A DNA stretch of 33,933 nt, taken from the NCBI GenBank assembly GCA_964532335.1, contig CAZHHV010000001.1:3327-37259 (forward strand), read 5' to 3'. The translations under genes were made by a program, and so were the position numbers. The stretch is from an uncultured Nitrospiraceae bacterium (lineage in GTDB: Bacteria > Nitrospirota > Thermodesulfovibrionia > Thermodesulfovibrionales > UBA1546). Shown here piece after piece: positions 2,923 to 26,119 of the stretch (position 1 is the first letter of the stretch; each line of letters opens with the position of its first letter). Below the pieces are notes generated by a model. The model worked only from the letters and a program-made list of their open reading frames with translations. It was not told where the DNA came from and ran no database searches.

Positions 2923-3273
2923 ATGACTTACAAGATTCTGGCAGACATTGTCGTATTTTCCCATTTCCTCTGGATATTATTTCTAATTTTTGGCGCACTC
3001 TTTGGCAGAAAAAACAGGCTCATAAAAATCTTCCATATCTCAGGGCTTGCTTTTGCATTTGTCATGCAGTTGTTTGACTGGTATTGTCCTCTTACACATC
3101 TTGAGGTCTGGCTGAGAGAAAAACACAGCCCTTCCTTAACATACAGCGGTTCATTCATCATCCACTACCTTGAAAAACTAATTTATATAGAAATCCCTTC
3201 ATATTTAATACTCATACTTACGATTCTTTTATGCGGATTCAATACATGGATTTATATGAGAAAGAAGAATTAA
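2923..3273 (+). CDS. DUF2784-family small membrane protein
   Basis: It has three or four hydrophobic segments and the motif DWYCPLTHLEVWLR, which is typical of DUF2784 proteins as I recall them. Confidence 0.6.
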   Translation: MTYKILADIVVFSHFLWILFLIFGALFGRKNRLIKIFHISGLAFAFVMQLFDWYCPLTHLEVWLREKHSPSLTYSGSFIIHYLEKLIYIEIPSYLILILTILLCGFNTWIYMRKKN

Positions 3274-4646
3274 ATGCTCAAAAGCGCTTTTAAGCCCCTG
3301 ACTGCCCTTTCAGGCGAAGGATAGACCGGGATTTTTGCTTTCTCAAACAGTGACGTAAGCCTCATGGATATTCCGCTTTCTGCGATATGGGCAATCAAAG
3401 GCTTTCTTATCTCTTCTTTGGCTTTTTTAAGCATTGGCGCAAGCCCTTCTGTTATTCCAAGGACATTCGGCAGCGCAATGATTAAGAAGCCGTCATAATC
3501 ATCTTTCAACTCATTTAAAGCAGTTGTATAGTCTGCATCGTTCACCTGAGCTGTCAGGTCAATGGGGTTATTGATTCCATAAAAATGCGGGAATATCTGT
3601 TTGAGTTTCTCCGTTTTATCATCCGTTAGCTTTGCCACCTCAAGCCCCTGTTTTATGCATTCATCAGCAGCAAGAACTCCTGAGCCTCCGCCGTTTGTAA
3701 TGATAAGAACTCTGTTGCTACCCCCCTTAATTCCCCCCTTGGCAAGGGGGGATACAGAGGGGTAAAATGCAAGCGCCTTTGTCGCATCAATAAGCACATC
3801 AAAATCCTCCACTTCCCTTATTCCGAACTGTCTGAGAATGGAATGGAAGACCTCGTATTTCCCAGCAAGCCTTCCTGTGTGCGAGAATGCCGCAGCCTGC
3901 CCGCTTTGGCTCTTGCCTGACTTAAGCAGGATAAAAGGTTTTTTGACGGATAATATCTTTGCCTTTTCTATAAACCTCCTGCCGTCAACAACAGATTCAA
4001 TGTATGACACTACAACATCCGTATATTTATCATCGGCAAGGTATTCGTACAAATCAGATTCATTTATATCAACAGCATTGCCGTAAGTAAGCGCCTTTGA
4101 TATGCCTGTGTTTGATGCCCTCATTGCTCCGATAAGACAGCTAAGTATAGCGCCGCTCTGTGATACCACAGCAACATTGCCTTTCTTAGGCCTTTTTAAC
4201 CTCTCATGCGGAAGGAAAAATGTATCCAGCCTGTGAGATGGATTATATATGCCCATGCAGTTTGGGCCGAGAATTCTAATGCCTATTTCTTCTCCTATTC
4301 TTTTTACTTCCTCCTGAAGGGCTGTTTCTCCCACTTCCGCAAACCCGGAACTGGCAATGATTACACTTTTTGTCCTGCCAGCAAGCTCTTTGAGTATTTG
4401 CGGGACTTCAGCAGCAGGCCTCATGATTATTGCCAGATCAACCGGTTCGGGAATATCACGGGCAGAAGGATACGCCTTTAAACCCATAAGCTCGCCGTAT
4501 TTCGGATTAACAGGATAAACCGTGCCTTTGAATTTGAGTAGGTTTTTAAGTATCACTCCGCCGAGCTTTTCCTCTGTATGCGCAGCGCCGATTAAAGCAA
4601 TGGATTTTGGTTTAAAAAGAGAATCAAGGTTCACATTGTTATCCAT
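3270..4646 (-). CDS. ADP-forming acetyl/acyl-CoA synthetase-like protein (alpha-type CoA-binding plus CoA-ligase domains, no ATP-grasp domain)
   Basis: The N-terminus LFKPKSIALIGAA...VYPVNPKY is a CoA-binding Rossmann motif. A phosphohistidine-type motif FSHTGRLAG and a second-domain motif ITNGGGSGVLAAD are present. The start is uncertain: I prefer the ATG at 4646, and the ORF-track start at 4745 is a TTG. Confidence 0.7.
   Translation of the reverse strand: MDNNVNLDSLFKPKSIALIGAAHTEEKLGGVILKNLLKFKGTVYPVNPKYGELMGLKAYPSARDIPEPVDLAIIMRPAAEVPQILKELAGRTKSVIIASSGFAEVGETALQEEVKRIGEEIGIRILGPNCMGIYNPSHRLDTFFLPHERLKRPKKGNVAVVSQSGAILSCLIGAMRASNTGISKALTYGNAVDINESDLYEYLADDKYTDVVVSYIESVVDGRRFIEKAKILSVKKPFILLKSGKSQSGQAAAFSHTGRLAGKYEVFHSILRQFGIREVEDFDVLIDATKALAFYPSVSPLAKGGIKGGSNRVLIITNGGGSGVLAADECIKQGLEVAKLTDDKTEKLKQIFPHFYGINNPIDLTAQVNDADYTTALNELKDDYDGFLIIALPNVLGITEGLAPMLKKAKEEIRKPLIAHIAESGISMRLTSLFEKAKIPVYPSPERAVRGLKALLSI
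3721..3762. repeat. G/C-run palindromic element lying in frame inside the acyl-CoA synthetase-like gene
   Basis: The sequence is ccccccttaattCCCCCCTTGGCAAGGGGGGatacagagggg. A perfect 19 nt palindrome lies at 3733-3751. It encodes SVSPLAKGGIKGG immediately before the conserved strand RVLIITNGGG. Confidence 0.7.
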
Positions 4647-4716
4647 AGGTTTTACTATATTATAATTGCACATTAAAGACAAATCAGCCCATGAATCTTG
4701 TGCCTCATACGTCAGC

Positions 4717-4746
4717 TTGACAAATTTAAAAATATGGTTATACAAT
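4717..4746 (+). promoter_or_regulatory. Putative sigma-70-type promoter for the AbrB-like gene
   Basis: TTGACA at 4717-4722, an 18 nt spacer, then TACAAT at 4741-4746. This is followed by the AGGAGG SD and the ATG at 4769. Confidence 0.45.
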
Positions 4747-4768
4747 GTATATACGATAGGAGGCTGAT

Positions 4769-4996
4769 ATGATAAAAAAATTAGTATCTCACGGTAACAG
4801 CGCGGCGCTTATAATTGACAAGCCCATACTCGAACTTTTAGATGTTGATATGGAGACCCCGCTTGAGATTGTCACTGACGGCAGGAATCTGATAATTTCA
4901 CCTGTAGGCACTGCCAAAAGGGAAAAGAAGTTTAAGGCTGCTCTTGAGAAAGTTAACAGGCTTCACGGAAAAACCCTGAGGAAACTTGCAGAATAA
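4769..4996 (+). CDS. AbrB/MazE/SpoVT-family DNA-binding protein (antitoxin-like), no adjacent toxin
   Basis: The N-terminal swapped-hairpin motif LVSHGNSAALIIDKPILELLDV...LIISPV is present. There is a strong SD, AGGAGG at 4758-4763. A TTGACA-18-TACAAT promoter lies upstream. Confidence 0.7.
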   Translation: MIKKLVSHGNSAALIIDKPILELLDVDMETPLEIVTDGRNLIISPVGTAKREKKFKAALEKVNRLHGKTLRKLAE

Positions 4997-5023
4997 GTGA
5001 AGGAAAAAATGATGCAGTAATTT

Positions 5024-6448
5024 TTAAAATCCTGCTGAGATACGGGCAAAATTAATAACTGCGGAAGGCAGCACTCCAATAAATAGGACTGCAATTACTG
5101 TTATTGCAAGCGCGAGGGCTACTCCATGAGAGACAGAAAGCTGAACTTCAGTCTTGGGTTCTTTCATGTACATATACATTACGATCCTCAGATAAAAATA
5201 TGCTGATATCGCGCTGAATATAACTGCTGTCACGGCAAGCCACGTATATCCTGCGCTTACTGCGCTCATAAAAAGATAAAACTTGCCCATAAACCCCGCT
5301 GTAGGCGGAATCCCTGTGAGTGAAAACATAAATACAAGCATCAAGGCAGCAGCCAATGGATGTGTCTTTGCGAGCCCCTCATAATCAGAGATATCATCTC
5401 CCTTAAATCCCTCTGACCTGAGCATAATCACAACTGCAAATGCGCCTATGTTCATGAATGCATAAATAAACATATAATTCAGAACGCTTGCCATGCCCTC
5501 TGATGTCCCTGCAATTATCCCAAGAAGCACATAACCTGCATGCGCTATTGAAGAATACGCAAGCATCCTTTTTATGTTTGTCTGTGAGATTGCGACTATG
5601 TTCCCGACAGCCATCGTAAGTATCGCTATCGGTATAAGAATGCCTGTCCATTCAATTCTTGCCGCGCCGAATGCTGTCATGAAAACCCTTCCAAGCACAG
5701 CAAACCCTGCCGCCTTGGGGCCTACTGACATAAATGCAGTGATGGAAGTAGGCGCGCCTTCATAAACATCAGGCGCCCACATGTGGAAAGGAACAGCAGC
5801 TATCTTGAATGAGAACGCTACTGCAAACATAATCATGGACAGCATTAAAACAGGATTGCCTGAAAGTCCATTACTGGATATGTAAGAAGATATCGCCTTG
5901 AGGTCTGTTGTGCCTGTAAGCCCGTATATCATTGATGTGCCATAGAGCAGAAATGCTGATGCAAATGCGCCAAGGAGGAAATACTTCATTGCGGCTTCGT
6001 TAGACTTTATGTCATGTCTCAGGAACCCTGCAAGCACATAAGTGCTCAATGCCATAAGTTCAAGCCCAAGATAGAGAGTTATCAGGTCTCCCGCTGACGC
6101 CATAAGCATCATGCCGAGAGTGGAAAAAAGTATAAGGCTGTAATATTCCCCGAAATTCACTTTTTCTATTGCGATGTATTTCACTGATATAAGGACAGTG
6201 AGAACGACATTCAGCATAAAAATAAGCTTGAAGAACAGGCTGTAACCATCAGCTATAAACATCCCCTTAAATGTGGTTCCCGCGGAACCGGCAAGCAAAT
6301 ATGTAACTACTGCAGCACTCACTATGCTCAGGAATGCAATCGTCTCTTTTCTTTTAATCACAAGCTCTGAAAGCAGAATGAGAAGAGCAAGGCACGTCAT
6401 CACGATTTCAGGCATCACAGGCCCAAGGTCAGGCATTACAAACGGCAT
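5024..6448 (-). CDS. nuoN: NADH-quinone oxidoreductase subunit N
   Basis: It is a polytopic antiporter-like protein at the last position of the nuo operon. The ATG at 6448 is preceded by AGGAGG. The ORF-track start at 6451 is a TTG one codon upstream. Confidence 0.93.
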   Translation of the reverse strand: MPFVMPDLGPVMPEIVMTCLALLILLSELVIKRKETIAFLSIVSAAVVTYLLAGSAGTTFKGMFIADGYSLFFKLIFMLNVVLTVLISVKYIAIEKVNFGEYYSLILFSTLGMMLMASAGDLITLYLGLELMALSTYVLAGFLRHDIKSNEAAMKYFLLGAFASAFLLYGTSMIYGLTGTTDLKAISSYISSNGLSGNPVLMLSMIMFAVAFSFKIAAVPFHMWAPDVYEGAPTSITAFMSVGPKAAGFAVLGRVFMTAFGAARIEWTGILIPIAILTMAVGNIVAISQTNIKRMLAYSSIAHAGYVLLGIIAGTSEGMASVLNYMFIYAFMNIGAFAVVIMLRSEGFKGDDISDYEGLAKTHPLAAALMLVFMFSLTGIPPTAGFMGKFYLFMSAVSAGYTWLAVTAVIFSAISAYFYLRIVMYMYMKEPKTEVQLSVSHGVALALAITVIAVLFIGVLPSAVINFARISAGF

Positions 6449-6468
6449 CAAAATCCTCCTTCACAATT

Positions 6469-6534
6469 TGTCATTCCGAGCATTGCGAGGAATCTCGCTT
6501 TTTGAGATTGCTTCGGCTTTGCCTCGCAATGACA
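6469..6534. repeat. Intergenic palindromic element (TGTCATTCCGAG...CTCGCAATGACA), nuoN-nuoM junction
   Basis: The terminal inverted repeat matches at 11 of 12 positions. There is an internal perfect 10 bp IR, cattgcgagg (6481-6490) paired with cctcgcaatg (6522-6531), plus nested short stems. Confidence 0.8.
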
Positions 6535-6536
6535 AC

Positions 6537-8075
6537 TCATTTGATAATCTCCAGAATATTTTTTGCAACACCTGCCTCATGCATGCCTCCCGAATTTACC
6601 CTCTCAAGCAGATGTTTTACAGACTCATGCATGAATCCGAGGAAAGCATTGGGATAAACTCCAATCCAGAATATAAGTATAATCATCGGCAGAAGTGTGA
6701 TTATTTCTCTTAAATTGATATCTGCAAGCCCTGCAACCTTCTGGTTTGTCTCCATGAAAAATACCCTCTGATAAAGCCAGAGCATATAGCCTGCGCCTAT
6801 GATTACCCCTGTTGCTGCAAGGACACCTGCCCATTGATTCGCCCTGAACCCTCCGAGGATAACCAGAAACTCCCCGATAAACCCGTTTGTTGCAGGAAGT
6901 CCTATTGATGCAAGCGTAAACACCATAAACAAGGCCGCATACACGGGCATTACAGAAGCGACCCCTCCATAATCCGAAATCTGCCTTGTATGGGTCCTGT
7001 CATAAATCATTCCAACGCTTAAAAATAATGCGCCTGTGACTATTCCATGGTTTATCATCTGGAGTATGCCGCCCTCCATGCCCTGCGAATTCAGGGCAAA
7101 GATTCCAAGAGTCACAAAACCCATGTGGCTCACAGAGCTGTATGCAATGAGCCTTTTCAGGTCTGTCTGCGCAAGACATATTACTGCGCCGTAAATTATC
7201 GCTATAACAGAGAGCGTAAGCATCACAGGCGTCATTGCCCTTGATGCATCAGGGAATAACGGCAATGAGAACCTGATAAAACCATAAGCGCCCATCTTGA
7301 TAAGCACGGCAGCAAGGATAACACTGCCTGCTGTCGGAGCCTCTGTATGCGCATCAGGAAGCCATGTGTGCACCGGGAACATCGGAACCTTAACGGCAAA
7401 TGCTGCAAAGAAAGCCCAGAAGAGCCAGAGCTGCAATTGATACGGATATGATTTTGTCATGAGTTCAAGTATGTCAAATGTCCTGCCGGCTTGATAATAA
7501 AGAACGATTATTCCAATAAGCATCAGCACGCTTCCGACAAGCGTGAAGAGGAAAAATTTCACCGCAGCATAAATCCTGTTAGGTCCGCCCCATACGCCTA
7601 TCAAAAGATACATGGGTATAAGCATTGCCTCCCAGAAGAGATAAAAAAGTATGAAATCCAATGAACAAAAAACGCCTATCATTGCGCCTTCCATTATCAG
7701 AATGGAGATATAAAATTCTTTTGTCTTTGTTTTTATAGAATTCCATGAGATAAGAATGCAGAGTATTGTAATAAGGGTTGAGAGAAGGACAAACAGAATG
7801 CTTATGCCGTCAATGCCGAGATGATAATTAATATTTAATGAAGGAATCCATGAATGTTTTTCTACAAACTGCATGAGATGCGTGGACTTATTGAACTCTG
7901 TGAACAAAGGAATTGAAATAATAAACGCCGCCGTGCTCACAATAAGGCTCAGCCATTTTATGAGGTTTTCATTAGACCTGCTTATCAGGAGCAAAAGCGC
8001 CGCGCCTGCAATTGGCAGGAATATCAATGTGCTCAGTATGGGGAACCCCAAATCATTCATTATCACCTGCTCCAT
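6537..8075 (-). CDS. nuoM: NADH-quinone oxidoreductase subunit M
   Basis: It is a 512 aa Mrp/antiporter-like subunit with motifs such as VPMFPVHTWLPDAHTEAPTAGSVILA. Operon position supports the call. Confidence 0.95.
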   Translation of the reverse strand: MEQVIMNDLGFPILSTLIFLPIAGAALLLLISRSNENLIKWLSLIVSTAAFIISIPLFTEFNKSTHLMQFVEKHSWIPSLNINYHLGIDGISILFVLLSTLITILCILISWNSIKTKTKEFYISILIMEGAMIGVFCSLDFILFYLFWEAMLIPMYLLIGVWGGPNRIYAAVKFFLFTLVGSVLMLIGIIVLYYQAGRTFDILELMTKSYPYQLQLWLFWAFFAAFAVKVPMFPVHTWLPDAHTEAPTAGSVILAAVLIKMGAYGFIRFSLPLFPDASRAMTPVMLTLSVIAIIYGAVICLAQTDLKRLIAYSSVSHMGFVTLGIFALNSQGMEGGILQMINHGIVTGALFLSVGMIYDRTHTRQISDYGGVASVMPVYAALFMVFTLASIGLPATNGFIGEFLVILGGFRANQWAGVLAATGVIIGAGYMLWLYQRVFFMETNQKVAGLADINLREIITLLPMIILIFWIGVYPNAFLGFMHESVKHLLERVNSGGMHEAGVAKNILEIIK

Positions 8076-8093
8076 TGCTTACTCCGACTCACC

Positions 8094-8171
8094 GTCATTC
8101 CTGCGGAGGCAGGAATCCAGGCTTGCCATAGAAATAGAAACTCTGGATTCCGCATCAAGTGCGGAATGACA
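8094..8171. repeat. GTCATTCC...GGAATGACA double-hairpin element, nuoM-nuoL junction
   Basis: The sequence is gtcattccTGCggagGCAggaatccag, then a 22 nt spacer, then ctggattccGCAtcaagTGCggaatgaca. The reverse complement of the right arm is identical to the left arm of the element at 17653. Confidence 0.85.
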
Positions 8172-8226
8172 GACTTGTTGATGACTTCTTTAGAGATTTG
8201 ACAATTCATTTTTTCTCCTCATCCAC

Positions 8227-10146
8227 CTACCTCAACAACATCACTGCCATTATTATCAACAAGCCCAGCGCCATTATTGCTGCATAGTGCTGTAACAAAC
8301 CTGTCTGGACTTTCCTCAGAATCCGGCTGAATTGTCCGATCCCTTTTGGGACACCATTAACAATAGCCTCAATAATCCTTGCATCCGTAATCCCGATGAG
8401 TATATTTTTGGCTGTCCAGATTGTTGGCCTCACGATTATAAAACTGTAAAGTTCATCCACATAGTATTTATTCCAGAGTATTTTATATGCGGCATTGAAT
8501 TTCTGAGCGAGCATGACAGGGATATCAGTCTTTGCAAGATAGAATAATGCTGCAAGCCCTATCCCTGAAAAACCTGCGATTACTGATATTGCCATCACCA
8601 TCCATTCCTCTGCATGTGTGCCGTGCGCTTCGGGATGCCCGAGCACAGGTTTTAAAAATTCCGTGAAATGCACGCCTCCTCCAAGCAGATGGGGAATCCC
8701 AATCCATCCTGATGCAACAGCGCCGACGCAGAGAATCACCAATGGTATTGTCATGGCCTTTGGAGATTCATGGAGATGATGTTCCTGTTCGTGCGTGCCC
8801 CGGAATTTTCCGTGGAACGTGAGGAATATAAGCCTGAATGAATAAAATGCTGTAAGGAACGCAACAACAGTCCCGATAGCCCACACGAATTTCCCCACAG
8901 GACTCTGCCCTGAATATGCAAGCCAGAGTATTTCATCCTTGCTGAAGAATCCTGCAAAGCCGGGCACGCCTGCAATGCTCAATGACGCAAAGAGCATTGT
9001 CCAGTATGTAATTGGCATATATTTCTTAATGCCGCCCATCTTCTGAAGGTCAAGCTCTCCTGACATTGCGTGCATTACGCTCCCTGCGCACAGGAAAAGA
9101 AGGGCTTTAAAAAATGCATGTGTGTAAAGATGGAACATTCCTGCGGTGTAAGCTCCGACTCCTGCTGCAAGGAACATATATCCGAGTTGGCTGATGGTTG
9201 AATACGCTATAATCCTTTTTATATCATTCTGTACAAGGCCGATAGTCGCAGCAAAGAGTGATGTTATAGCCCCTGTTAATGCAACCACTATAAGCGCTGT
9301 TTCAGAAAGGCTGAATATCGGACTGCACCTTGCAACGAGGAAAACACCTGCCGTAACCATTGTTGCCGCGTGTATCAGCGCGCTGACAGGGGTAGGACCC
9401 TCCATTGCATCAGGAAGCCAGACATGAAGCGGCATCTGCGCTGACTTCCCAATTGAGCCGCAGAAAAGAAGAAGCGCAATCAATGTCATAAGATGCACGT
9501 CATATCCAAGGAAATTAATTGTTTGTGCTGCAAGGCCCTTTGCCTGTGAAAAGACAGGCTCATAATAAACGGTTCCGAATGTGAGGAATATCATTATTAT
9601 TCCGAGACCGAAGCCGAAGTCGCCAAACCTGTTCACTATAAAAGCCTTTTTGCCTGCGTCAGAGGCTGACTTCTTGTCAAAGTAATATCCTATGAGAAAG
9701 TATGAACACAAGCCGACCCCTTCCCATCCAAAATACAACTGGAGGAAGTTATTAGCCATAACAAGCATGAGCATACAGAAAGTAAATAGACTGAGATATG
9801 CAAAAAACCTGTAATATCCTTTATCTCCATGCATATAACCAACAGAATATATATGTATGAGGGTACTGCAGGTTGTTACAACAACAAGCATTACCGCAGT
9901 AAGCGGGTCAATAAGAAAACCCACAGAGACCTTGAATTCGCCGGAAACAATCCATGAGTAGATGTCTTCATTTATAACCTTGCCTGACAGGACATCAGGC
10001 AGTGTCATTACAGTCACAACCCATGACCCGGCAACCGCAAGTATTGATACCCAGTGGCTATGCTCCTTCAGATACTTCCTGCCGAAAAGAATATTTATCA
10101 AAAAAGCGGCAAGCGGCAGAAATGGTATTAAAAGATAGTTGTTCAT
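8227..10146 (-). CDS. nuoL: NADH-quinone oxidoreductase subunit L
   Basis: It is a 639 aa antiporter-like subunit with a long C-terminal extension, containing MPLHVWLPDAMEGPTPVSALIHAATMV. Confidence 0.95.
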   Translation of the reverse strand: MNNYLLIPFLPLAAFLINILFGRKYLKEHSHWVSILAVAGSWVVTVMTLPDVLSGKVINEDIYSWIVSGEFKVSVGFLIDPLTAVMLVVVTTCSTLIHIYSVGYMHGDKGYYRFFAYLSLFTFCMLMLVMANNFLQLYFGWEGVGLCSYFLIGYYFDKKSASDAGKKAFIVNRFGDFGFGLGIIMIFLTFGTVYYEPVFSQAKGLAAQTINFLGYDVHLMTLIALLLFCGSIGKSAQMPLHVWLPDAMEGPTPVSALIHAATMVTAGVFLVARCSPIFSLSETALIVVALTGAITSLFAATIGLVQNDIKRIIAYSTISQLGYMFLAAGVGAYTAGMFHLYTHAFFKALLFLCAGSVMHAMSGELDLQKMGGIKKYMPITYWTMLFASLSIAGVPGFAGFFSKDEILWLAYSGQSPVGKFVWAIGTVVAFLTAFYSFRLIFLTFHGKFRGTHEQEHHLHESPKAMTIPLVILCVGAVASGWIGIPHLLGGGVHFTEFLKPVLGHPEAHGTHAEEWMVMAISVIAGFSGIGLAALFYLAKTDIPVMLAQKFNAAYKILWNKYYVDELYSFIIVRPTIWTAKNILIGITDARIIEAIVNGVPKGIGQFSRILRKVQTGLLQHYAAIMALGLLIIMAVMLLR

Positions 10147-10150
10147 TTTC

Positions 10151-10453
10151 TCATCCCTTCATCTCATCCATTTCATCAACATGAACAGTGTCCTTGTTCC
10201 TGAACAGCGCGATAATTATCGCAAGCCCTATCGCGGCCTCTGCCGCTGCGACAGTGATTATAAAGATAACAAGAATCTGCCCTCTCATGTTCTGCAGGTA
10301 ATGGCTGAATGCCACAAGGCTGATATTCACTGCATTCAGCATAAGCTCTATTGACATGAACATTATTATGATATTCCTTCTTGTAAGGAACCCGAAGACT
10401 CCTATCATAAAAACCACTGCGCTCAACATCAGATACCAGTTCAAAGGAACCAT
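10151..10453 (-). CDS. nuoK: NADH-quinone oxidoreductase subunit K
   Basis: It is 100 aa with 3 TM segments and a conserved membrane-embedded Glu ([22 protein letters not shown]). Confidence 0.95.
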
Positions 10454-10467
10454 AGCTTGCTCCGCAA

Positions 10468-10529
10468 GAATTCAAAATTTAAAATTGAAAATTCAAAATT
10501 CTTGAATATTGGATATTGAATATTGAATC
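10468..10529. repeat. AT-rich two-armed tandem-repeat hairpin, nuoK-nuoJ junction
   Basis: The left arm has about 8-9 nt units (aaaattcaa / aaattgaaa). The centre is attcaaAATTCttgaat. The right arm has 8 nt units (atattgga / tattgaat). The arms are only partly complementary. Confidence 0.6.
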
Positions 10530-10538
10530 TTCTTTTCA

Positions 10539-11051
10539 TCAGCTTCTTGTCTTCCTTTTCGCGAGTACTATTGCCCCTATAATCGCAACAAGCAGCACAA
10601 GGGAAGCTATTTCAAAAGGAAAAAGGTAATCGGTGTATAACAGAGTTCCAAGCGCCTTTGTATGAGTCTCCTGTTTTATAAATTCAATGGAATATTTTCC
10701 GGCAGGCCCCGGCACAAAAGACTTTACTACACTCAAGACAATCACAAGCAAAGCCGCAGTTACAAAAAGCCCGGCGGGCCATGCGCCTATAAATCTTTTT
10801 ACTTTAAGTTCCTCCCTAAGATTCAGAAGAAGCAAAACAAAAAGGAACAGCACGAGTATTGCTCCTGCATAAACTATAATCTGTATTGCCGCGATAAACT
10901 CGGCGTTCAGGAACAGATAAAGACCTGCAATGTGCAAGAAAAGCAAAAGCATCCACATAACGCTGTGCACAGGGTTGCTTCTCGTAACAACCAGCAGCGA
11001 AAAGATGACTATCGCAGAAGCGTAATATGCAAAAAATAATTCAGGCAACAT
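10539..11051 (-). CDS. nuoJ: NADH-quinone oxidoreductase subunit J
   Basis: It is about 170 aa, hydrophobic, and in the expected operon position. The ATG at 11051 has GGAG 6 nt upstream. The track start at 11054 is a GTG. Confidence 0.92.
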   Translation of the reverse strand: MLPELFFAYYASAIVIFSLLVVTRSNPVHSVMWMLLLFLHIAGLYLFLNAEFIAAIQIIVYAGAILVLFLFVLLLLNLREELKVKRFIGAWPAGLFVTAALLVIVLSVVKSFVPGPAGKYSIEFIKQETHTKALGTLLYTDYLFPFEIASLVLLVAIIGAIVLAKRKTRS

Positions 11052-11068
11052 CACACGCTCCGCTTTTC

Positions 11069-11146
11069 TGTCATTCCAGCAGTTCTTAAGCGGGAATCCA
11101 GAAGATTAATTAAAAGACTGGATTCCGTGTCAAGCACGGAATGACA
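11069..11146. repeat. GTCATTCC...GGAATGACA double-hairpin element, nuoJ-nuoI junction
   Basis: The sequence is tgtcattcc...gggaatccag, then a spacer, then ctggattccGTGtcaagCACggaatgaca. The reverse complement of the right arm is identical (29 nt) to the left arm of the element at 25976. Confidence 0.85.
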
Positions 11147-11186
11147 TTTTTTATTGTCCTTTGTGTCTCTTTGAGATATATGTGTT

Positions 11187-11738
11187 TTATTTTGCATTCT
11201 TAACTCCCCTAAACATCGCCTGGCCTTCATATCCATGGAAGTCCTCTGCTTTCGGTCTCCAGAAATCTCTGAAATATCTCCTGCCTTTCTCTCCTGCAAA
11301 ATATTTATCCCAGTTAGAGAGAAGTTTTTCTTTCGTCATATAAAAAGGCTCTCTTGAATAATCCGAATATTCGTAATGCTCGCTCAATGTGATTGCGCCG
11401 AAAGGACATGCCTCAACGCAGAACCCGCAGTAAATGCATCTGAGAACCTCTATCTCATACCTGTCCACAACCTTTGTATGGTCTTCGCCGTCCGATGTGT
11501 AGATGTATATGCACTTTGACGGGCAGTAAGCTCCGCAGAGTCCGCAGCCAACACACTTCATCCTGCCATTTTCATCCTTCGCAAGCGCATGAAGCCCCCT
11601 GAACCCCGGCTTCACAGGCCTTTTAACCTTGGGATAGCGCCTGGTCACAGCAGGTGTGAACATGGTTTTGAGAGTCAATGCAAGACCCTTCAGAATCTCC
11701 ACAAAAAATATAGTCCTTATTAATTTAGCGGCTGTCAT
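11187..11738 (-). CDS. nuoI: NADH-quinone oxidoreductase subunit I (2x[4Fe-4S] ferredoxin)
   Basis: Two CxxCxxCxxxCP motifs are present (CVGCGLCGAYCP, CIYCGFCVEACP). The start is uncertain: ATG at 11738, or TTG at 11774 in the ORF track. Confidence 0.9.
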   Translation of the reverse strand: MTAAKLIRTIFFVEILKGLALTLKTMFTPAVTRRYPKVKRPVKPGFRGLHALAKDENGRMKCVGCGLCGAYCPSKCIYIYTSDGEDHTKVVDRYEIEVLRCIYCGFCVEACPFGAITLSEHYEYSDYSREPFYMTKEKLLSNWDKYFAGEKGRRYFRDFWRPKAEDFHGYEGQAMFRGVKNAK

Positions 11739-11785
11739 GCTGAATAAAATGAATTGCCTCGTAGTAAGTTGCAAGGCAGAAAGTC

Positions 11786-11861
11786 TGTCATTCCGGCTTG
11801 TCCGGAATCTTTTTTTGTTTTTAAAAAGGATTCCCGACGCGCTTTGCTTGCGGGAATGACA
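11786..11861. repeat. GTCATTCC...GGAATGACA element, nuoI-nuoH junction
   Basis: The sequence is tgtcattccGGcttgtCCggaatc, then a T/A-rich centre, then ggattcccgacgcgctttgcttgcgggaatgaca. Confidence 0.8.
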
Positions 11862-11898
11862 ACTGTTAGGTTTTTAATTGTCGAAGCATTAATGTGTT

Positions 11899-12951
11899 TC
11901 ATACCAATATTTTCACTAATCCAGTTACTACTATATTCAATAAAGCTAATGGGATTAATATCTTCCATCCTATAGCCATAAGCTGGTCATACCTGTATCT
12001 CGGCAGTGTTGCCCTGGCCCAATAATAAAAGAACATAAAGGCATAAACCTTTATCAGAAACCACACAATACCGGGCACATTCAGCAAGAAAGGCATTGCA
12101 TCTGAAATAAACTTCGGTATTGTCCACCCTCCCAAAAAACACAATGCCGCTATAGAAGACATTATCAGCATCGCCGTGTATTCGCCGAGGAAAAATAGTG
12201 CGAACCTGAATCCGCTGTATTCCGTAAAATATCCTGCAACAAGCTCGCTTTCCGCCTCCGGCAGATCAAAAGGGAGCCTGTTCGTCTCTGCGAATGCAGC
12301 AACAACAAATATAAAGAAACCTAAAAACTGCGGTATGGCAAACATTCCTGCAGGATATTGATGCTGTGCCCTGACAATATCAGAAAGGTTAAGGGAACCT
12401 GCCATCATCATAACGCCCACAAGGCTAAGGCCCATTGCAATCTCATAACTGATTACCTGTGATGCTGACCTCAGCCCGCCAAGGAATGAATATTTGGAGT
12501 TTGACGCCCACCCTGATAATATAATTCCATAAGCTCCGAGAGAAGACATTGCAAAAAGAAAAAGCAGGCCTATATTTATGTGAGCTATCACAAAGCCGTC
12601 GAAAAACGGAAGCACTGACAATGACGTGAGAGCCGAAACCATGAATATGACAGGCGCAAGATAGAACAACGGCTTATCTGCATTTGCAGGTATAATGTCT
12701 TCTTTAAAGAACAGTTTTATCCCGTCTGCAATCGGCTGTAATAATCCATGCCATCCTACTTCAATGGGGCCAAGCCTTACCTGCATGTGACCTATTACTT
12801 TGCGCTCCCAGTAAGTTGCATAAGCAACATGAAGAAGCGTTATTCCAAGGACAACGGCGATATTTACGAGAATAATCCCAATATCTATCCCAAGCTTAAT
12901 CATAGGGTTCATTGCAGCCGCATTATCTATAAACTGAAGAATGTCGTTCAT
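11899..12951 (-). CDS. nuoH: NADH-quinone oxidoreductase subunit H
   Basis: It is a 350 aa polytopic protein with ND1/NuoH motifs (ERKVIGHMQVRLGP, FAETNRLPFDLPEAESELVAGY). Its start overlaps the nuoG stop (ATGA). Confidence 0.95.
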   Translation of the reverse strand: MNDILQFIDNAAAMNPMIKLGIDIGIILVNIAVVLGITLLHVAYATYWERKVIGHMQVRLGPIEVGWHGLLQPIADGIKLFFKEDIIPANADKPLFYLAPVIFMVSALTSLSVLPFFDGFVIAHINIGLLFLFAMSSLGAYGIILSGWASNSKYSFLGGLRSASQVISYEIAMGLSLVGVMMMAGSLNLSDIVRAQHQYPAGMFAIPQFLGFFIFVVAAFAETNRLPFDLPEAESELVAGYFTEYSGFRFALFFLGEYTAMLIMSSIAALCFLGGWTIPKFISDAMPFLLNVPGIVWFLIKVYAFMFFYYWARATLPRYRYDQLMAIGWKILIPLALLNIVVTGLVKILV

Positions 12952-15620
12952 AAACCAGCCTTCTCTATAGCTACTGTATTCCCATCCAGAACAGGGGCCC
13001 TTGTAACAGGCTCTATATCATAGCCCATCAATCTATATGCGCTCTTGCCTTCAAAATTATTAGTGAGCATGACTGAAAAATTGTCTAATGCTTTATCGAT
13101 AACCACAGGCAGTTCAATTGAACCAGTCTTTGTGGAAACTCTGACAACTTCACCCTCTTTAAAGGAAAGCTCCTTAGCTGTATCCGGACTTATTCTTACA
13201 ACCGCCTCAGGATATATCTTCACAAGTGCAGGCACCCTTCTGCTCAAAGTGCCTGAATGGAATAGCGGCCTTTCAATTCTAAGATAAAGTTTCCCGTTAA
13301 CACTAAGTCTCTCTGCATTATGCGCCTGAATCTCTTCCATCATATCCCTTAATGGTTCTCCCTTATAAGGATAAATTCCCTCTCCTTTTTCTATATCTTC
13401 ATATGTAAGGTTTTTATGTAAAGGGGATGCCTTGCAAATCTCATTGAATATATCTTCAACATTTGAGCAATCGAACTTCTTACCCATATTCTTTGCGATA
13501 TTAGAGATAATCCTCCAGTCCTCCATCCCCTCCCTGTTTACTGCCTTTCTCACACGCTGTATTCTTCTTTCCATGTTTGTGAATGTGCCGTCCTTCTCAG
13601 CCCAGCTAAGCGCAGGCAGCACAACATCGGCAAGCATCCCTGTTTCTGTAAGAAATATGTCCTGCACAACAAGGAACTCGATATTTTTAAGCGCTGATTC
13701 CGCTGAATTAGAATCAGGAAGATTATAAGCAGGATTTTCACCCATTACATACATTGCTTTCAGAGAGCCGTTTCTCGCAGTGTCTATCATCTCAAATATT
13801 GTAAGCCCTTGTTTTTCAGGTATCTCACTCTTCCAGATGCTTTCGTATCTTCTTCTGAACTCCACATAAGAAACGGGCCTGTATCCTGGCAGTATATCAG
13901 GTGCGCATCCCATGTCAAGAAGTCCCTGCTCATTTGCCCTGTCAGAAAGCAGATAGATCCTTCCGTTAATAAGATAGTTTATTGCTGATAGGAGCAGGAG
14001 CTTGTAGCTTGCTCCATTACTCTGTGTCGTCTCCTTACCTATTGCTATTGATGGGTTTGTGGATTCTGAAAGGATATTCAAAAACTCATTAAACTCTTTC
14101 TCTCCGATATTGCAGATATTCTTCACATCCTCAACAGAGGTGTTTATATCCTTTATCTTTGCCTCAAGTTTAGGATTTGCATCCGAAAGTCCTTTCTTAT
14201 TTTTTAGTGCAGTAACAATACCTTCAAGCAGAACATCTTCTGTGTATAAGACCGGCACAAGCTTTTGTGGACTGAAATATTCAAGACCTTTGAAATTCCC
14301 TATTGTCAGTATGTTACCACCATTTCTTGAACATGCCCTTATCTGAAGCCCGAGGATAGGATTTATTGTTGTTGGGTCTCCGCCGATCACAAATACAAGA
14401 TCAGAATTCGAAAGACCGGATATTATGTTTGCTGTTGCGCCTTGCCCAAAGATATTCTCTATAAAATTCTGGGCGCCTGCAAAGCCTGTCCTTGCAGTGC
14501 TGTCAATGTTATTTGTCCCGAGCGCAACTCTCATAAATTTCTGGAATATATAATTGTCCTCATTCGTGCATCTCGGTGAGGCAATTCCAGCTATTGCAGA
14601 ATTGCCATACTTCTCTTTAATCTCTGATAGTTTTTTTGCAACAAGGCTTATGGCCTCTTCCCATGTAGCTTCTCTGAAGAGAGACGAGAGACGAGTGACG
14701 AGTGACGAGTTTAATTCAGACATCCATTGCTTATCGTCCTTCGTCCTTCGTCCTTCGTCCTTACTTTCCCTCGGAGCTATTCTTATAAGAGGTGTTGTCA
14801 GCCTCTCTTTGCTTCCTACAAACTCATATCCGAATCTCCCCCTCGTACAGAGAAGCCCGTTATTAACAACAGAACCGATTCTGGGAACAACCCTCTTAAT
14901 CACATCATCACGAACCTGAACAATAAGAGTACATCCAACACCGCAATAGGGACAGATTGTCTCTGTCTCATTCACCATCTGCCACGGCCTGTAACTGTGC
15001 CTGTGGAGTCTTGACATGACTGCTCCGACAGGGCATACAGAGATACAGTTCCCGCAGTATTCGCAATCATATTTGCCGCCCGAGAAAGGCTCAATGTGGG
15101 AATGGCCTCCCCTGCTTATAACGTCAATCGCCGAGGCGCCCTGAACCCCCTCGCACATCCTGACGCATCTGGTGCACATAATACATCTTTCCATATTTCG
15201 AACAATAACAGGGTCTTCGAGGCTTTCAGGAACTTTTCTCTTCTTTTCTTTATATCTACCCTTTGCAGGTCCGTATTTTTCTACAAGGTCCTGCAATTCG
15301 CACTCACCTGCCTTATCGCACACAGGACAATCGAGCGGATGGTTAATAAGCAGAAATTCGAGTGTGCCTCTTCTGACATTGGCTATCTGTTCTGTTTCTG
15401 TTCTGACAACCATTCCGTCAGCAACCATAAGAGTACAGGCTGTCTGAAGTCTTGGTATCTTTTCGACTTCGACAAGACACAGCCTGCATCCGCCGTATCT
15501 TCCAAGCTGTTCATGCCAGCAGAGAGTGGGTATCTTTATCCCTGCAGACCTCGCAGCCTCAAGCACAGTGACAGGCTTCTCTAATTTAATCTCTTTGCCG
15601 TTAATGGTGACTGTAATCAT
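12948..15620 (-). CDS. nuoG: NADH-quinone oxidoreductase subunit G (75 kDa type, with non-catalytic molybdopterin-like domain and an in-frame repeat insertion)
   Basis: The N-terminal [2Fe-2S] region (CRLCLVEV), the His-ligated cluster HPLDCPVCDKAGEC, and the 4Fe-4S motifs are present. In the molybdopterin-like domain, STARTGFAG replaces the FDH Cys/Sec-His site. Confidence 0.93.
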   Translation of the reverse strand: MITVTINGKEIKLEKPVTVLEAARSAGIKIPTLCWHEQLGRYGGCRLCLVEVEKIPRLQTACTLMVADGMVVRTETEQIANVRRGTLEFLLINHPLDCPVCDKAGECELQDLVEKYGPAKGRYKEKKRKVPESLEDPVIVRNMERCIMCTRCVRMCEGVQGASAIDVISRGGHSHIEPFSGGKYDCEYCGNCISVCPVGAVMSRLHRHSYRPWQMVNETETICPYCGVGCTLIVQVRDDVIKRVVPRIGSVVNNGLLCTRGRFGYEFVGSKERLTTPLIRIAPRESKDEGRRTKDDKQWMSELNSSLVTRLSSLFREATWEEAISLVAKKLSEIKEKYGNSAIAGIASPRCTNEDNYIFQKFMRVALGTNNIDSTARTGFAGAQNFIENIFGQGATANIISGLSNSDLVFVIGGDPTTINPILGLQIRACSRNGGNILTIGNFKGLEYFSPQKLVPVLYTEDVLLEGIVTALKNKKGLSDANPKLEAKIKDINTSVEDVKNICNIGEKEFNEFLNILSESTNPSIAIGKETTQSNGASYKLLLLSAINYLINGRIYLLSDRANEQGLLDMGCAPDILPGYRPVSYVEFRRRYESIWKSEIPEKQGLTIFEMIDTARNGSLKAMYVMGENPAYNLPDSNSAESALKNIEFLVVQDIFLTETGMLADVVLPALSWAEKDGTFTNMERRIQRVRKAVNREGMEDWRIISNIAKNMGKKFDCSNVEDIFNEICKASPLHKNLTYEDIEKGEGIYPYKGEPLRDMMEEIQAHNAERLSVNGKLYLRIERPLFHSGTLSRRVPALVKIYPEAVVRISPDTAKELSFKEGEVVRVSTKTGSIELPVVIDKALDNFSVMLTNNFEGKSAYRLMGYDIEPVTRAPVLDGNTVAIEKAGL
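14683..14761. repeat. Two-armed heptamer tandem repeat inside nuoG coding sequence
   Basis: There are four heptamers, GACGAGA plus 3x GACGAGT, at 14683-14710. A 23 nt spacer follows, then 4x TCGTCCT at 14734-14761. The GACGA and TCGTC cores are complementary, 5 of every 7 nt. Confidence 0.85.
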
Positions 15621-15667
15621 GATTTATCCAAATCTGCTAATACGTCCCTCTCTAAAACCCCACTTTT

Positions 15668-15731
15668 TGTCATTCCCGCTTGTCGGGAATCTTTCTTTTC
15701 CCAGAAGGATTGCGGACAAGCTGCAATGACA
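15668..15731. repeat. GTCATTCC...GCAATGACA element, nuoG-nuoF junction
   Basis: The sequence is tgtcattcccgcttgtcgggaatctttcttt...ggattgcggacaagctgcaatgaca. It is nearly identical to the copy at 17047. Confidence 0.85.
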
Positions 15732-15743
15732 TGGAAATACTTT

Positions 15744-17003: not shown

Positions 17004-17046
17004 AACCTTAAACTTTTAATAGAAATTCATAAGTGAAACCACGGTT

Positions 17047-17107
17047 TGTCATTCCCGCTTGTCGGGAATCTTTCTTTAGGAAGGATTGCGGACAAGCCGC
17101 AATGACA
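17047..17107. repeat. GTCATTCC...GCAATGACA element, nuoF-nuoE junction (with outer imperfect IR 17029-17042 / 17124-17137)
   Basis: The first 31 nt are identical to the copy at 15668, and the right arm differs at 1 nt. The outer ataagtgaaaccac / gtggtattacttat pair is complementary at 12 of 14 positions. Confidence 0.85.
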
Positions 17108-17168
17108 GAACAAAAATGGTCATGTGGTATTACTTATGGTCTTATTAGTAACTTCTAACTCTTTCCTC

Positions 17169-17633: not shown

Positions 17634-17652
17634 TTCCTTAAATTTTCCTCGC

Positions 17653-17723
17653 CGTCATTCCGCACTTGATGCGGAATCCAGAGCTTCTGATGAGAACTGG
17701 ATTCCCGCCTGCGCGGGAATGAC
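17653..17723. repeat. GTCATTCC...GGAATGACA double-hairpin element, nuoE-nuoD junction
   Basis: The sequence is gtcattccGCActtgaTGCggaatccag, then a 15 nt spacer, then ctggattccCGCctgcGCGggaatgaca. Confidence 0.85.
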
Positions 17724-17740
17724 AAAACTAAAAACTGTAT

Positions 17741-18938: not shown

Positions 18939-18990
18939 GGTGTCAGTGTCAGTTGTCAGTAGCTGACACTAATCACTGTCACTATTCACT
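18939..18990. repeat. Two-armed 6-7 nt tandem-repeat hairpin, nuoD-nuoC junction
   Basis: The left arm is tgtcag tgtcag ttgtcag, the loop is tag, and the right arm is ctgacac taatcac tgtcac tattcac. The perfect core palindrome tgtcagTAGctgaca lies at 18954-18968. Confidence 0.75.
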
Positions 18991-19528: not shown

Positions 19529-19536
19529 GTTCTTAG

Positions 19537-19602
19537 TGCAGTAGCTCAGCAGCGCAGTAGCGCAGTAGTATCCTTACTGCTGCTCTGTTGCTCTGCTGCT
19601 CT
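19537..19602. repeat. Two-armed octamer tandem-repeat hairpin, nuoC-nuoB junction
   Basis: The left arm is tgcagtag ctcagcag cgcagtag cgcagtag. The loop is tatcct. The right arm is (t)tactgctg ctctgttg ctctgctg ctct, which is partly complementary. Confidence 0.7.
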
Positions 19603-20142: not shown

Positions 20143-20226
20143 TTGCGTTTATTGCGTTATAGCGTTATTGCGTTCATTGTTTTCATTATTTTACGCTACA
20201 ACGCTATAACGCTTCACGCCATAACG
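20143..20226. repeat. Two-armed octamer tandem-repeat hairpin, nuoB-nuoA junction
   Basis: The left arm carries GCGTT every 8-9 nt (at 20145, 20154, 20162, 20170). The right arm carries ACGC every 8 nt (at 20193, 20201, 20209, 20217). There is a perfect 13 bp pairing of gcgttatagcgtt (20154-20166) with aacgctataacgc (20200-20212). Confidence 0.8.
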
Positions 20227-20231
20227 ATTTT

Positions 20232-20603
20232 TCAGTCCCATTTAAATGCCTCCTTTTTCCATGCATAAACATAGCCGACAAAAAGTATCACTATAAAAAT
20301 AACCATCTCAATAAATGCGTATAGTCCAATCCTGTCAAATACAACAGCCCAGGGATAAAGGAAAACAGCCTCAACGTCAAAGATAACAAAGAGCATGGCG
20401 ATAATATAGAATTTAACAGAAAATCTGTATCGCGGCTCTCCGACAGGCAGGTTGCCTGATTCATAAGGCATAAGTTTTTCAGGGTATGGCCTTTTCAGTC
20501 TGAGGAGTTCACCGATTAATAAGGCGCCCATTCCGAAGGCCGTTGCGACCATCAAAAATATAAGAACAGGCAAATAATCCGAAGGCAAATAAGTTCCGGG
20601 CAT
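20232..20603 (-). CDS. nuoA: NADH-quinone oxidoreductase subunit A
   Basis: It is 123 aa with 3 TM segments of the ND3 family (YESGNLPVGEPRYRFSVKFYIIAMLFVIFDVE) and is the first gene of the operon. Confidence 0.93.
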   Translation of the reverse strand: MPGTYLPSDYLPVLIFLMVATAFGMGALLIGELLRLKRPYPEKLMPYESGNLPVGEPRYRFSVKFYIIAMLFVIFDVEAVFLYPWAVVFDRIGLYAFIEMVIFIVILFVGYVYAWKKEAFKWD

Positions 20604-25945: not shown

Positions 25946-25975
25946 GTAATACAACTTTCGCAGATGATTTTTGGT

Positions 25976-26049
25976 TGTCATTCCGTGCTTGACACGGAAT
26001 CCAGTTCCACAATATATCCCTCTGGATTCCCGCTTTCGCGGGAATGACA
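25976..26049. repeat. GTCATTCC...GGAATGACA double-hairpin element downstream of nfnB (nested inside a perfect 12 bp outer IR, 25952-25963 / 26069-26080)
   Basis: The sequence is tgtcattccGTGcttgaCACggaatccag, then a spacer, then ctggattccCGCtttcGCGggaatgaca. The outer pair is caactttcgcag / ctgcgaaagttg. Confidence 0.85.
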
Positions 26050-26119
26050 GAAGGCGTTTTTAAAAGTGCTGCGAAAGTTGACTTATTGACTCAATTAAAA
26101 GAAGGGAGGAGTTATTTTT

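Follow-up and report, generated by a model that had tools for sequence, protein, structure and literature searches.

An in-frame, two-armed heptamer repeat in nuoG of an uncultured Nitrospiraceae bacterium and its alleles in relatives

RESULTS

The nuoG gene carries an in-frame repeat hairpin

The stretch of DNA analyzed here (33,933 nt, hereafter the window) comes from an uncultured Nitrospiraceae bacterium and contains a complete nuo operon of 14 genes on the minus strand, running from nuoA (20232-20603) to nuoN (5024-6451). One of these genes, nuoG, which encodes subunit G of the NADH-quinone oxidoreductase and has nuoF and nuoH as neighbors, contains a repeat hairpin that leaves its open reading frame (ORF) intact. 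The identity of the gene was established from its operon position and from the Pfam domains Fer2_4, NADH-G_4Fe-4S_3, Fer4_Nqo3, Molybdop_Fe4S4, Molybdopterin, and Molydop_binding. Its top protein matches were from uncultured Nitrospirota/Thermodesulfovibrionales metagenome-assembled genomes (MAGs), the best being 90% identical, and no record identical to the window NuoG was found among the protein matches. For comparison, loci from relatives and metagenomes were fetched and given L-numbers, and the window's own nuoG allele was named WIN. The boundaries of the insert were set against the short allele of L002, the closest insert-free relative. The host gene, its paralogue, and the parts of the insert are as follows.

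12948-15620, minus strand: nuoG, 890 aa, the host gene
30580-33042, plus strand: NuoG-like paralogue (NuoG/FdhA-like), 820 aa, in the same window
14685-14774, minus strand: in-frame insert of 90 nt, from about P283 to S312, by DNA alignment of WIN, L004, L002, L003, and L005
14775-14779, minus strand: 5ʹ half of the outer stem, TAGCT, in the conserved Ile-Ala codons of the IAPK flank, found in both minimum-free-energy folds
14734-14762, minus strand: sense 5ʹ arm, (AAGGACG)x4.1, encoding KDEGRRTKD (Tandem Repeats Finder, 100% matches)
14711-14733, minus strand: spacer of 23 nt between the two arrays, forming the hairpin loop and encoding DKQWMSEL
14675-14710, minus strand: sense 3ʹ arm, CTCGTCA x2, CTCGTCT x2, and a terminal CTCTTCA, encoding NSSLVTRLSSLF (Tandem Repeats Finder)
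14666-14670, minus strand: 3ʹ half of the outer stem, AGCTA, in the conserved Glu-Ala-Thr codons, pairing with 14775-14779

The insert adds 30 residues after the segment ...RLTTPLIR. Translation of the minus strand across it reads ...RLTTPLIRIAPRESKDEGRRTKDDKQWMSELNSSLVTRLSSLFREATWEEA, with IAPRESKDEGRRTKDDKQWMSELNSSLVTRLSSLFREATWEEA following ...RLTTPLIR, while the paralogue reads ...RLKTPLIRKEGSLVPATWDEA at the matching point, and the BLASTP alignment of the two proteins has a gap of 30 residues exactly there. An initial annotation of this DNA had proposed a repeat hairpin adding about 30 residues to nuoG, with coordinates that proved right within a few bases and a design of two heptamer arms around a 23-nt spacer, and the translation, the gap, and the arrays found by Tandem Repeats Finder bear out each of these points. 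On the plus strand, the program reported 5.1 copies of the period-7 unit TGACGAG with 89% matches at 14675-14710 and 4.1 copies of the period-7 unit TCGTCCT with 100% matches at 14734-14762. All AAGGACG copies of the 5ʹ arm are identical and the unit lacks stop codons in six frames; the 3ʹ arm units are stop-free on the sense strand. As 7 and 3 are coprime, successive units of an array are read in different frames, covering all three. The degenerate last unit of the 3ʹ arm, CTCTTCA, coincides with the conserved Leu-Phe-(Arg) flank codons, and the SEL codons of the spacer are shared by the L004, L204, and L206 alleles.

The two arms form five Watson-Crick pairs per 7-nt unit (GACGA/TCGTC). The plus strand folds better than the mRNA strand because the sixth position of each unit is a G.U pair on the plus strand and an A.C mismatch on the sense strand. 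Over 131 nt, the plus-strand fold reached -41.9 kcal/mol (z-score -4.0; 0 of 200 shuffles as good), compared to -37.9 kcal/mol for the sense strand (z-score -1.8; 6 of 200 shuffles as good). The G-rich arm lies 5ʹ, G minus C being +11 for the first arm and -8 for the other. The GC-skew profile merely tracks gene orientation and was uninformative on replication direction or on the antisense fold advantage.

The insert occupies a variable loop

The insert site falls where the Fe4S4 domain (residues 218-268) gives way to the molybdopterin domain (273-710), and we place it directly behind the fourth Cys of the N7-type 4Fe-4S site. The 120 close orthologues examined were mostly 857-864 aa long, 44 of them exactly 860, and read PLI(K/R)-KNG-(V)LE-ATWEEA across the site. 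Among the solved homologues compared, most, such as Thermus Nqo3, E. coli NuoG, the mitochondrial 75-kDa subunit, and several formate dehydrogenases, stopped aligning at about residue 280, and the second aligned stretch, where present, restarted at 311-317. In Nqo3, the loop would follow the equivalent of residue ~313. These comparisons, which include the orthologue alignment suggested as a check by the initial annotation, show that most orthologues, the paralogue, and the homologues in the PDB are without the insert.

Length at this site varies by 0-30 residues among orthologues. An AlphaFold2 model built from 70 sequences gave a per-residue confidence (pLDDT) below 50 for residues 287-310 and of 82-83 for the flanking blocks; the model was also poor in the N-terminal Fe-S domains of NuoG. 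We regard the low pLDDT as weak support for a permissive loop and the length variation among orthologues as the stronger argument. Together they suggest that the insert sits in a variable, predicted surface-exposed loop that the fold tolerates, so that the charged, low-complexity surface loop proposed initially holds as regards length variability and, in the model, low confidence. Tryptic peptides predicted for the insert include TKDDKQWMSELNSSLVTR.

The site is a hotspot of unrelated alleles

In Thermodesulfovibrionales/Nitrospirota MAGs, the nuoG site is a hotspot. Fourteen long alleles, orthologous or paralogous, replace KNG by R-IAPK + core + (L)FRE, and all 14 are in frame. Their flanks vary synonymously like ordinary coding sequence, while the cores are mostly unrelated to one another; at least eight unrelated cores occur, in addition to the empty state. 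Nearly all cores consist of local 7-8-nt tandem units, and many fold back. The cores are listed below.

WIN and L003: AAGGACG and CTCGTCA arms
L004 and L204: AGTCAGG units plus a G6/C6 hairpin; L204 lacks 45 nt holding the C-run
L005: CAGCTNA units
L007: NACGCNT units
L008: GGTTCAA units
L019: TCCGAAA units with an inverted copy
L205 and L207: 8-nt arms ACGGAGAN and CATTCACC
L206: one-armed (CTCCGAA)x4 array
L208: CCTCACT units
L035: 16-nt and 8-nt arms

Turnover at the site is evident among close relatives. The nuoG DNA of WIN, L004, L005, and L002 is 90-97% identical on both sides of the site, yet the four genomes show four states, L002 having the short ancestral form. Even where genomes are about 92% identical, their core peptides are not conserved. 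WIN and L003 share a core whose 3ʹ arm differs by exactly 21 nt, that is, three heptamers, leaving L003 with one unit. The L206 array is a fourfold copy of Ser-Glu-Leu codons found in several alleles, and the L019 units derive from the same codons. Throughout, arm length steps were whole units, and only frame-keeping changes were seen.

In a neighbor-joining tree calculated with the site masked, long alleles were scattered and core types did not follow the tree. The pairwise nuoG identity profiles of WIN, L004, L005, and L002 were mosaic, and this mosaic identity together with the scatter of long alleles points to recombination between lineages shuffling the alleles. As a test of a single origin of the long alleles, the tree was reticulate and patchy, and it did not separate repeated gain from recombination.

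The L035 locus (10001-12784) holds a NuoG-like gene that is 46% identical to WIN over the first 385 aa and contains both a G6/C6 hairpin insert and a two-armed insert flanked by IAPK...FRE. It has an in-frame TGA at codon 387, in the context ...NNIDHCAR-TGA, which is the selenocysteine/cysteine position of formate dehydrogenases.

Hairpin folding differs among alleles

When the folding of the alleles was compared, the hairpin was significant in 6 of 11 and was often stronger on the antisense strand, which argues against a strict requirement at the mRNA level. The L003 allele keeps the insert and forms no hairpin because its 3ʹ arm is three heptamers shorter, indicating that the stem is not strictly required. 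Scanning the entire window against Rfam gave no family, and a promoter/terminator scan around the insert found no terminator-like site coinciding with the hairpin.

Hairpins of the same design occur at nuo junctions

Four intergenic junctions of the operon contain two-armed hairpins, in agreement with the initial annotation, which had likened the nuoG insert to them. The window features of this kind, located by tandem-repeat search, are as follows.

10469-10528: two-armed heptamer hairpin at the nuoJ/nuoK junction, AATTCAA / TTGAATA
18940-18990: two-armed hairpin at the nuoC/nuoD junction, GTGTCAG / CTGACAC
19534-19602: two-armed octamer hairpin at the nuoB/nuoC junction, TAGCGCAG / CTGCTGCT
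20143-20213: two-armed octamer hairpin at the nuoA/nuoB junction, TTGCGTTA / TAACGCTA

The nuoJ/nuoK hairpin is part of a cassette (10454-10538) with the conserved ends TGAAAAGAAG ... CTTGCGGAGCAAGC-ATG. Such AATTCAA/TTGAATT cassettes start directly after the upstream stop codon (TGAAAAGAAG) and end at a GGAG-loop hairpin (CTTGCGGAGCAAGC) before the ATG. In L019, three successive junctions within 1 kb hold one (3995-4085, 4596-4660, and 4963-5045), and the nuoI/nuoJ junction does so in L004 (14296-14366) and L003 (4190-4250), while the nuoJ/nuoK junction is empty in L004 and L005. The cassette thus occupies different nuo junctions in different genomes, and its unit numbers vary among copies. 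Likewise, the nuoB/nuoC hairpin has an 85%-identical copy at the nuoH/nuoI junction of L005. All four intergenic hairpins of the window contain stop codons on both strands, whereas the arrays found within genes are, without exception, free of stops on the sense strand, which points to a stop-codon filter on which repeats survive in genes.

A second repeat class of conserved sequence was present in eight further intergenic gaps, seven of them within the nuo operon (6452-6536, 8076-8226, 11055-11186, 11775-11898, 15621-15743, 17004-17168, 17634-17740, and 25946-26119). It is a nested palindrome of the form TGTCATTCC(C)GC..GGGAATCC..loop..GGATTCC..GCGGGAATGACA. With one class or another, a strong stem-loop is found at all 12 nuo junctions that have an intergenic gap.

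Two more in-frame repeats were found inside genes of the window.

32620-32665, plus strand: perfect one-armed array (TCGTCAA)x6.6, in frame in the NuoG-like paralogue, encoding SSIVNRQSSIVNRQS
about 3717-3762, minus strand: C6/G6 hairpin CCCCCCTTGCCAAGGGGGGAATTAAGGGGGG, in frame in an ACD-like gene, adding PSVSPLAKGGIKGGS

The paralogue array has no complementary arm. An identical lead-in, TAAACTCGTCA, precedes both this array and the nuoG 3ʹ arm, although the protein positions of the two are not homologous. The ACD-like host (ORF 3270-4745) resembles an ADP-forming acetyl-CoA synthetase. The G6/C6 element recurs in the L004 nuoG insert (10895-10914), where it takes the form C6-N8-G7-N6-G7, in the L035 nuoG-like gene at residues ~119-135, and also in L007, L013, L022, L023, and L073.

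The ACD-like gene and a DUF2784 gene lie in a region of about 2 kb (2946-5022) separating nuoN from a T2SSE-like gene, and a small AbrB-like ORF was noted by eye within 4746-5023. The closest relative, L004, has no counterpart of this region, its flanks being about 200 nt apart. In addition, the closest relative has a gene with a cyclic nucleotide (cNMP)-binding domain between nuoD and nuoE (L004/L001, 7577-8044), while the corresponding interval of the window is without this gene and consists only of the 107-nt hairpin-bearing gap at 17634-17740.

Arrays of the same unit recur in unrelated organisms with a fixed polarity

Scanning metagenome contigs for (AAGGACG)x3 gave at least 120 stretches. 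The loci of this family (L084-L203) yielded 122 arrays from the listed loci, or 126 by cluster, with GC contents of 0.42 to 0.72. At least three (C/T)T(C/T/G)G(T/C)C units were found within 90 nt downstream in 33 of the 126 listed arrays and upstream in 5. The purine- and G-rich arm is thus almost always the 5ʹ arm, on both strands (33 vs 5). In the nuoG-related loci (L004-L083), the G-rich arm was 5ʹ in 18 of 24 informative two-armed pairs, out of 26 pairs in total.

Copies of this family lie in frame in hosts from unrelated metagenome contigs. Those identified by Pfam were glutamate synthase (GltB), 5-enolpyruvylshikimate-3-phosphate synthase (AroA), a penicillin-binding protein (PBP) transpeptidase, an ABC-F ATPase, and DUF2298; a further ORF, judged from its sequence, is probably a nonribosomal peptide synthetase (NRPS). 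The family peptide ...TKDEGRRT...loop...SSFVLRPSS... matches the pattern KDEGRRTKD...SSLVTRLSS of nuoG, while loops and ends vary among members. When a synthetic two-arm peptide was searched against proteins, the matches were all hypothetical ORFs of 40-97 aa from several phyla and uninformative on hosts, and a literature search for FVLRPSSFVL, DEGRRTKDEG, repeat DNA, and dispersed or tandem heptameric repeats returned nothing specific.

In L192, a contig of 58% GC, one NRPS-like ORF of more than 2700 aa (~4160-8260) holds at least four two-armed heptamer hairpins in frame, with pairs including GACGAAG/CTTGGTC, GACGAAG/CTTCGTC, and GGGGCTG/CCCCAGT. The unit CCCCAGT equals the cyanobacterial STRR1 heptamer.

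DISCUSSION

Origin of the nuoG insert

On balance, we lean towards the view that the nuoG insert is an inverted microsatellite of local origin, altered by slippage and kept only where the frame stays open, although this preference is a modest one. Two facing 7-nt arrays would have grown in a permissive surface turn, replacing the ancestral K-N-G turn; replication slippage would add and remove units, and homologous recombination may exchange alleles between lineages. The second arm could have been born, and kept partly complementary, through fold-back or template-switch synthesis or through selection for the stem. The peptide would be a disordered, charged loop without its own function, so that the element, as neutral or selfish DNA, would persist at any site where the protein tolerates it. 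Local repeat birth and slippage are indicated by the flank-derived last unit of the 3ʹ arm, the origin of the L206 and L019 arrays from local codons, and the 21-nt difference between WIN and L003. We regard the insert as fast-evolving repeat DNA tolerated by the protein and not as a functional domain.

Several results weigh against a purely local origin. The arms share a 5-nt complementary core in each unit (GACGA/TCGTC), which independent seeding from the two flanks does not explain, and a template-switch signature could not be shown for the nuoG arms. Arrays of (AAGGACG)n plus (C/T)TTCGTC recur in many unrelated organisms and genes, a recurrence for which coincidence is no better an explanation than a spreading element or a sequence-specific process. 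The junction hairpins, which have the same design, behave as copy-and-paste cassettes, and a dispersed G6/C6 hairpin element has inserted at the very same nuoG site in L004. Further, the Fdh-like paralogue L035, at 38-46% identity, has the same IAPK...FRE flanks, which bears on the origin of the long alleles.

A broader possibility, which we put forward only tentatively, is that the nuoG insert is one case of an undescribed, cross-phylum class of ORF-compatible two-armed heptamer hairpins (GACGAAG/CTTCGTC; peptide ...KDEGRRT...loop...SSFVLRP...) colonizing NuoG, GltB, AroA, PBP, ABC-F, and NRPS genes. The polarity of the arms would then point to a mechanism of DNA synthesis, such as snap-back copying, and not to transposition or chance.

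The leading alternative to local birth is that a pre-formed, non-autonomous two-armed hairpin element, similar to a MITE (miniature inverted-repeat transposable element), a repetitive extragenic palindrome (REP), or a Rickettsia palindromic element (RPE), was inserted and slipped later, different elements having landed repeatedly in a hairpin-prone site. We consider this somewhat unlikely, but it deserves serious attention: L002, a close relative, is without any insert; the G6/C6 element occupies this site in L004 and L204 and lies in frame in the ACD-like gene and the L035 nuoG-like gene; the AATTCAA and GAGCAGCA junction hairpins are at non-orthologous junctions in relatives, the former with conserved ends and three copies in L019; and the AAGGACG/CTTCGTC pair is in frame in GltB, AroA, PBP, ABC-F, and NRPS genes elsewhere. 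However, neither the 34-kb window nor the 208 loci contained another copy of the WIN core, save at the orthologous L003 site, and the loops and ends of AAGGACG-family members are not conserved. No target-site duplication or conserved termini were found around the nuoG insert; its array instead grades into conserved flank codons, and the arrays of relatives clearly come from local codons.

Selection of the stem-loop at the RNA level, whether for stabilizing or processing the mRNA or for pausing translation once the Fe-S domains have emerged, as part of the junction-hairpin system, is improbable. That unrelated cores at one site fold significantly in 6 of 11 alleles, that every gapped nuo junction carries a strong hairpin, and that the site falls on the Fe4S4/molybdopterin domain boundary would all suit such a role. 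Nevertheless, the sense fold is weaker than the antisense fold in WIN and in most significantly folding alleles, L003 retains its insert without a hairpin, many orthologues do well without any insert, and Rfam offered no matching RNA family.

It is very unlikely that the insert has a function in the protein, such as regulation or docking through a loop on the N-module, and that its DNA symmetry is incidental: the frame is always kept and the IAPK and FRE flanks are conserved as amino acids with synonymous variation, but the core peptide differs even between genomes about 92% identical, its low complexity is dictated by the nucleotide repeat, and the structural model is of low confidence at the insert. 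Finally, although amplification or assembly errors can create inverted repeats, an artefact such as a chimeric fold-back is scarcely credible, as the site carries this core also in L003 (GCA_030683185.1), an independent MAG in which the number of units is different, and thirteen other independently assembled alleles are all in frame.

Comparison with known repeat systems

The closest described pattern is that of the paired convergent heptamer arrays of Xanthomonas (GGGAATC; Rehm et al. 2015, PMC4692102), which occur at many loci per genome with variable unit numbers. As in nuoG, two close 7-nt arrays lie on opposite strands, can form a stem-loop, and have the G-rich array first (PMC4692102). 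The Xanthomonas units, however, contain G-tracts, are quadruplex-capable, and are intergenic and under-represented in coding sequence (PMC4692102), whereas the nuoG units AAGGACG and CTCGTCA have no G-tract and lie in frame inside an essential gene. New here are the position within a coding sequence, the series of alleles, and the GACGAAG/CTTCGTC family, which spans phyla and has a fixed polarity.

The initial annotation had likened the insert to RPE. These elements, said to have been described by Ogata et al. in 2000, are reportedly hairpin-forming repeat DNA in frame in conserved protein genes at sites tolerated by the fold, and reportedly occur as dispersed copies of 100-150 bp with few consensus sequences in one genus. 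The nuoG insert is similar in being in frame, in keeping the ORF, and in lying at a tolerated site; it differs in its 7-nt tandem units and lineage-specific core and in its Nitrospirota host, and no consensus element was found in the window or the 208 loci. Membership of the RPE was not to be expected, the nearest relatives of the host gene being Nitrospirota/Thermodesulfovibrionales. The comparison therefore holds for hairpin DNA lying in frame in a tolerant loop and is not supported for a transposed, pre-formed element, as no second copy was found in the window or in the 208 loci outside the orthologous L003 site, and no conserved termini or target-site duplication around the insert; if the insert is of local origin, it is RPE-like in consequence only.

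REPs and bacterial interspersed mosaic elements (BIMEs), including GTAG- and CGTC-tagged families, are small palindromes that mostly lie between co-directional genes and sometimes inside genes, and that possibly act as RNA hairpins (Di Nocera et al. 2013, PMC3733652). CGTC is also present in every unit of the nuoG arms. Nevertheless, REPs are single palindromes of 20-40 bp with an unpaired terminal tag, one sequence reaching high copy number, whereas the nuoG arms are tandem arrays and their CGTC, unlike the tag of REPs and REPINs, is internal and paired in the stem. Compared with a MITE, the arms are inverted, but WIN has no flanking direct repeat and its ends grade into conserved codons.

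Among the long simple repeats of prokaryotes, heptamers are the most frequent kind (PMC4679880). The short tandemly repeated repetitive (STRR) heptamers of cyanobacteria and Beggiatoaceae, such as TAACTGA (MacGregor 2015, PMC4679880), are shared across distant phyla with no evident transfer mechanism; their unit numbers vary, they lie near translational starts, and almost all are one-armed, direct, and intergenic, with one inverted case. The nuoG insert differs in its two inverted arms and its position within a gene.

Borg tandem repeats (Schoelmerich et al. 2023, PMC9879509) are fast-evolving, arise locally in ORFs, and encode low-complexity, probably disordered peptides. The nuoG insert is similar in the local birth of a repeat in an ORF and in its low-complexity peptide. 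Borg ORF units are reportedly multiples of 3 nt, direct and not inverted, and carried by archaeal extrachromosomal elements.

With a contingency (phase-variation) locus, the insert shares a unit length that is not a multiple of three and four perfect 7-nt copies inside an ORF. No ON/OFF frame switching was seen among the alleles compared: the polymorphism between WIN and L003 amounts to three units and is in frame, like all 14 long alleles.

Implications

In practical terms, inserts of this kind affect the annotation of MAGs, where they inflate protein lengths and give rise to spurious small ORFs. If the cross-phylum GACGAAG/CTTCGTC family with its fixed polarity is real, it would indicate an uncharacterized mutational mechanism. 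The nuoG hotspot provides a natural series for studying the birth, growth, and replacement of hairpins. Inverted microsatellites, commonly regarded as oddities of intergenic DNA, can be born and replaced within an essential respiratory gene, where they would produce lineage-specific, probably disordered loops, the only visible filters being the reading frame and stop codons.

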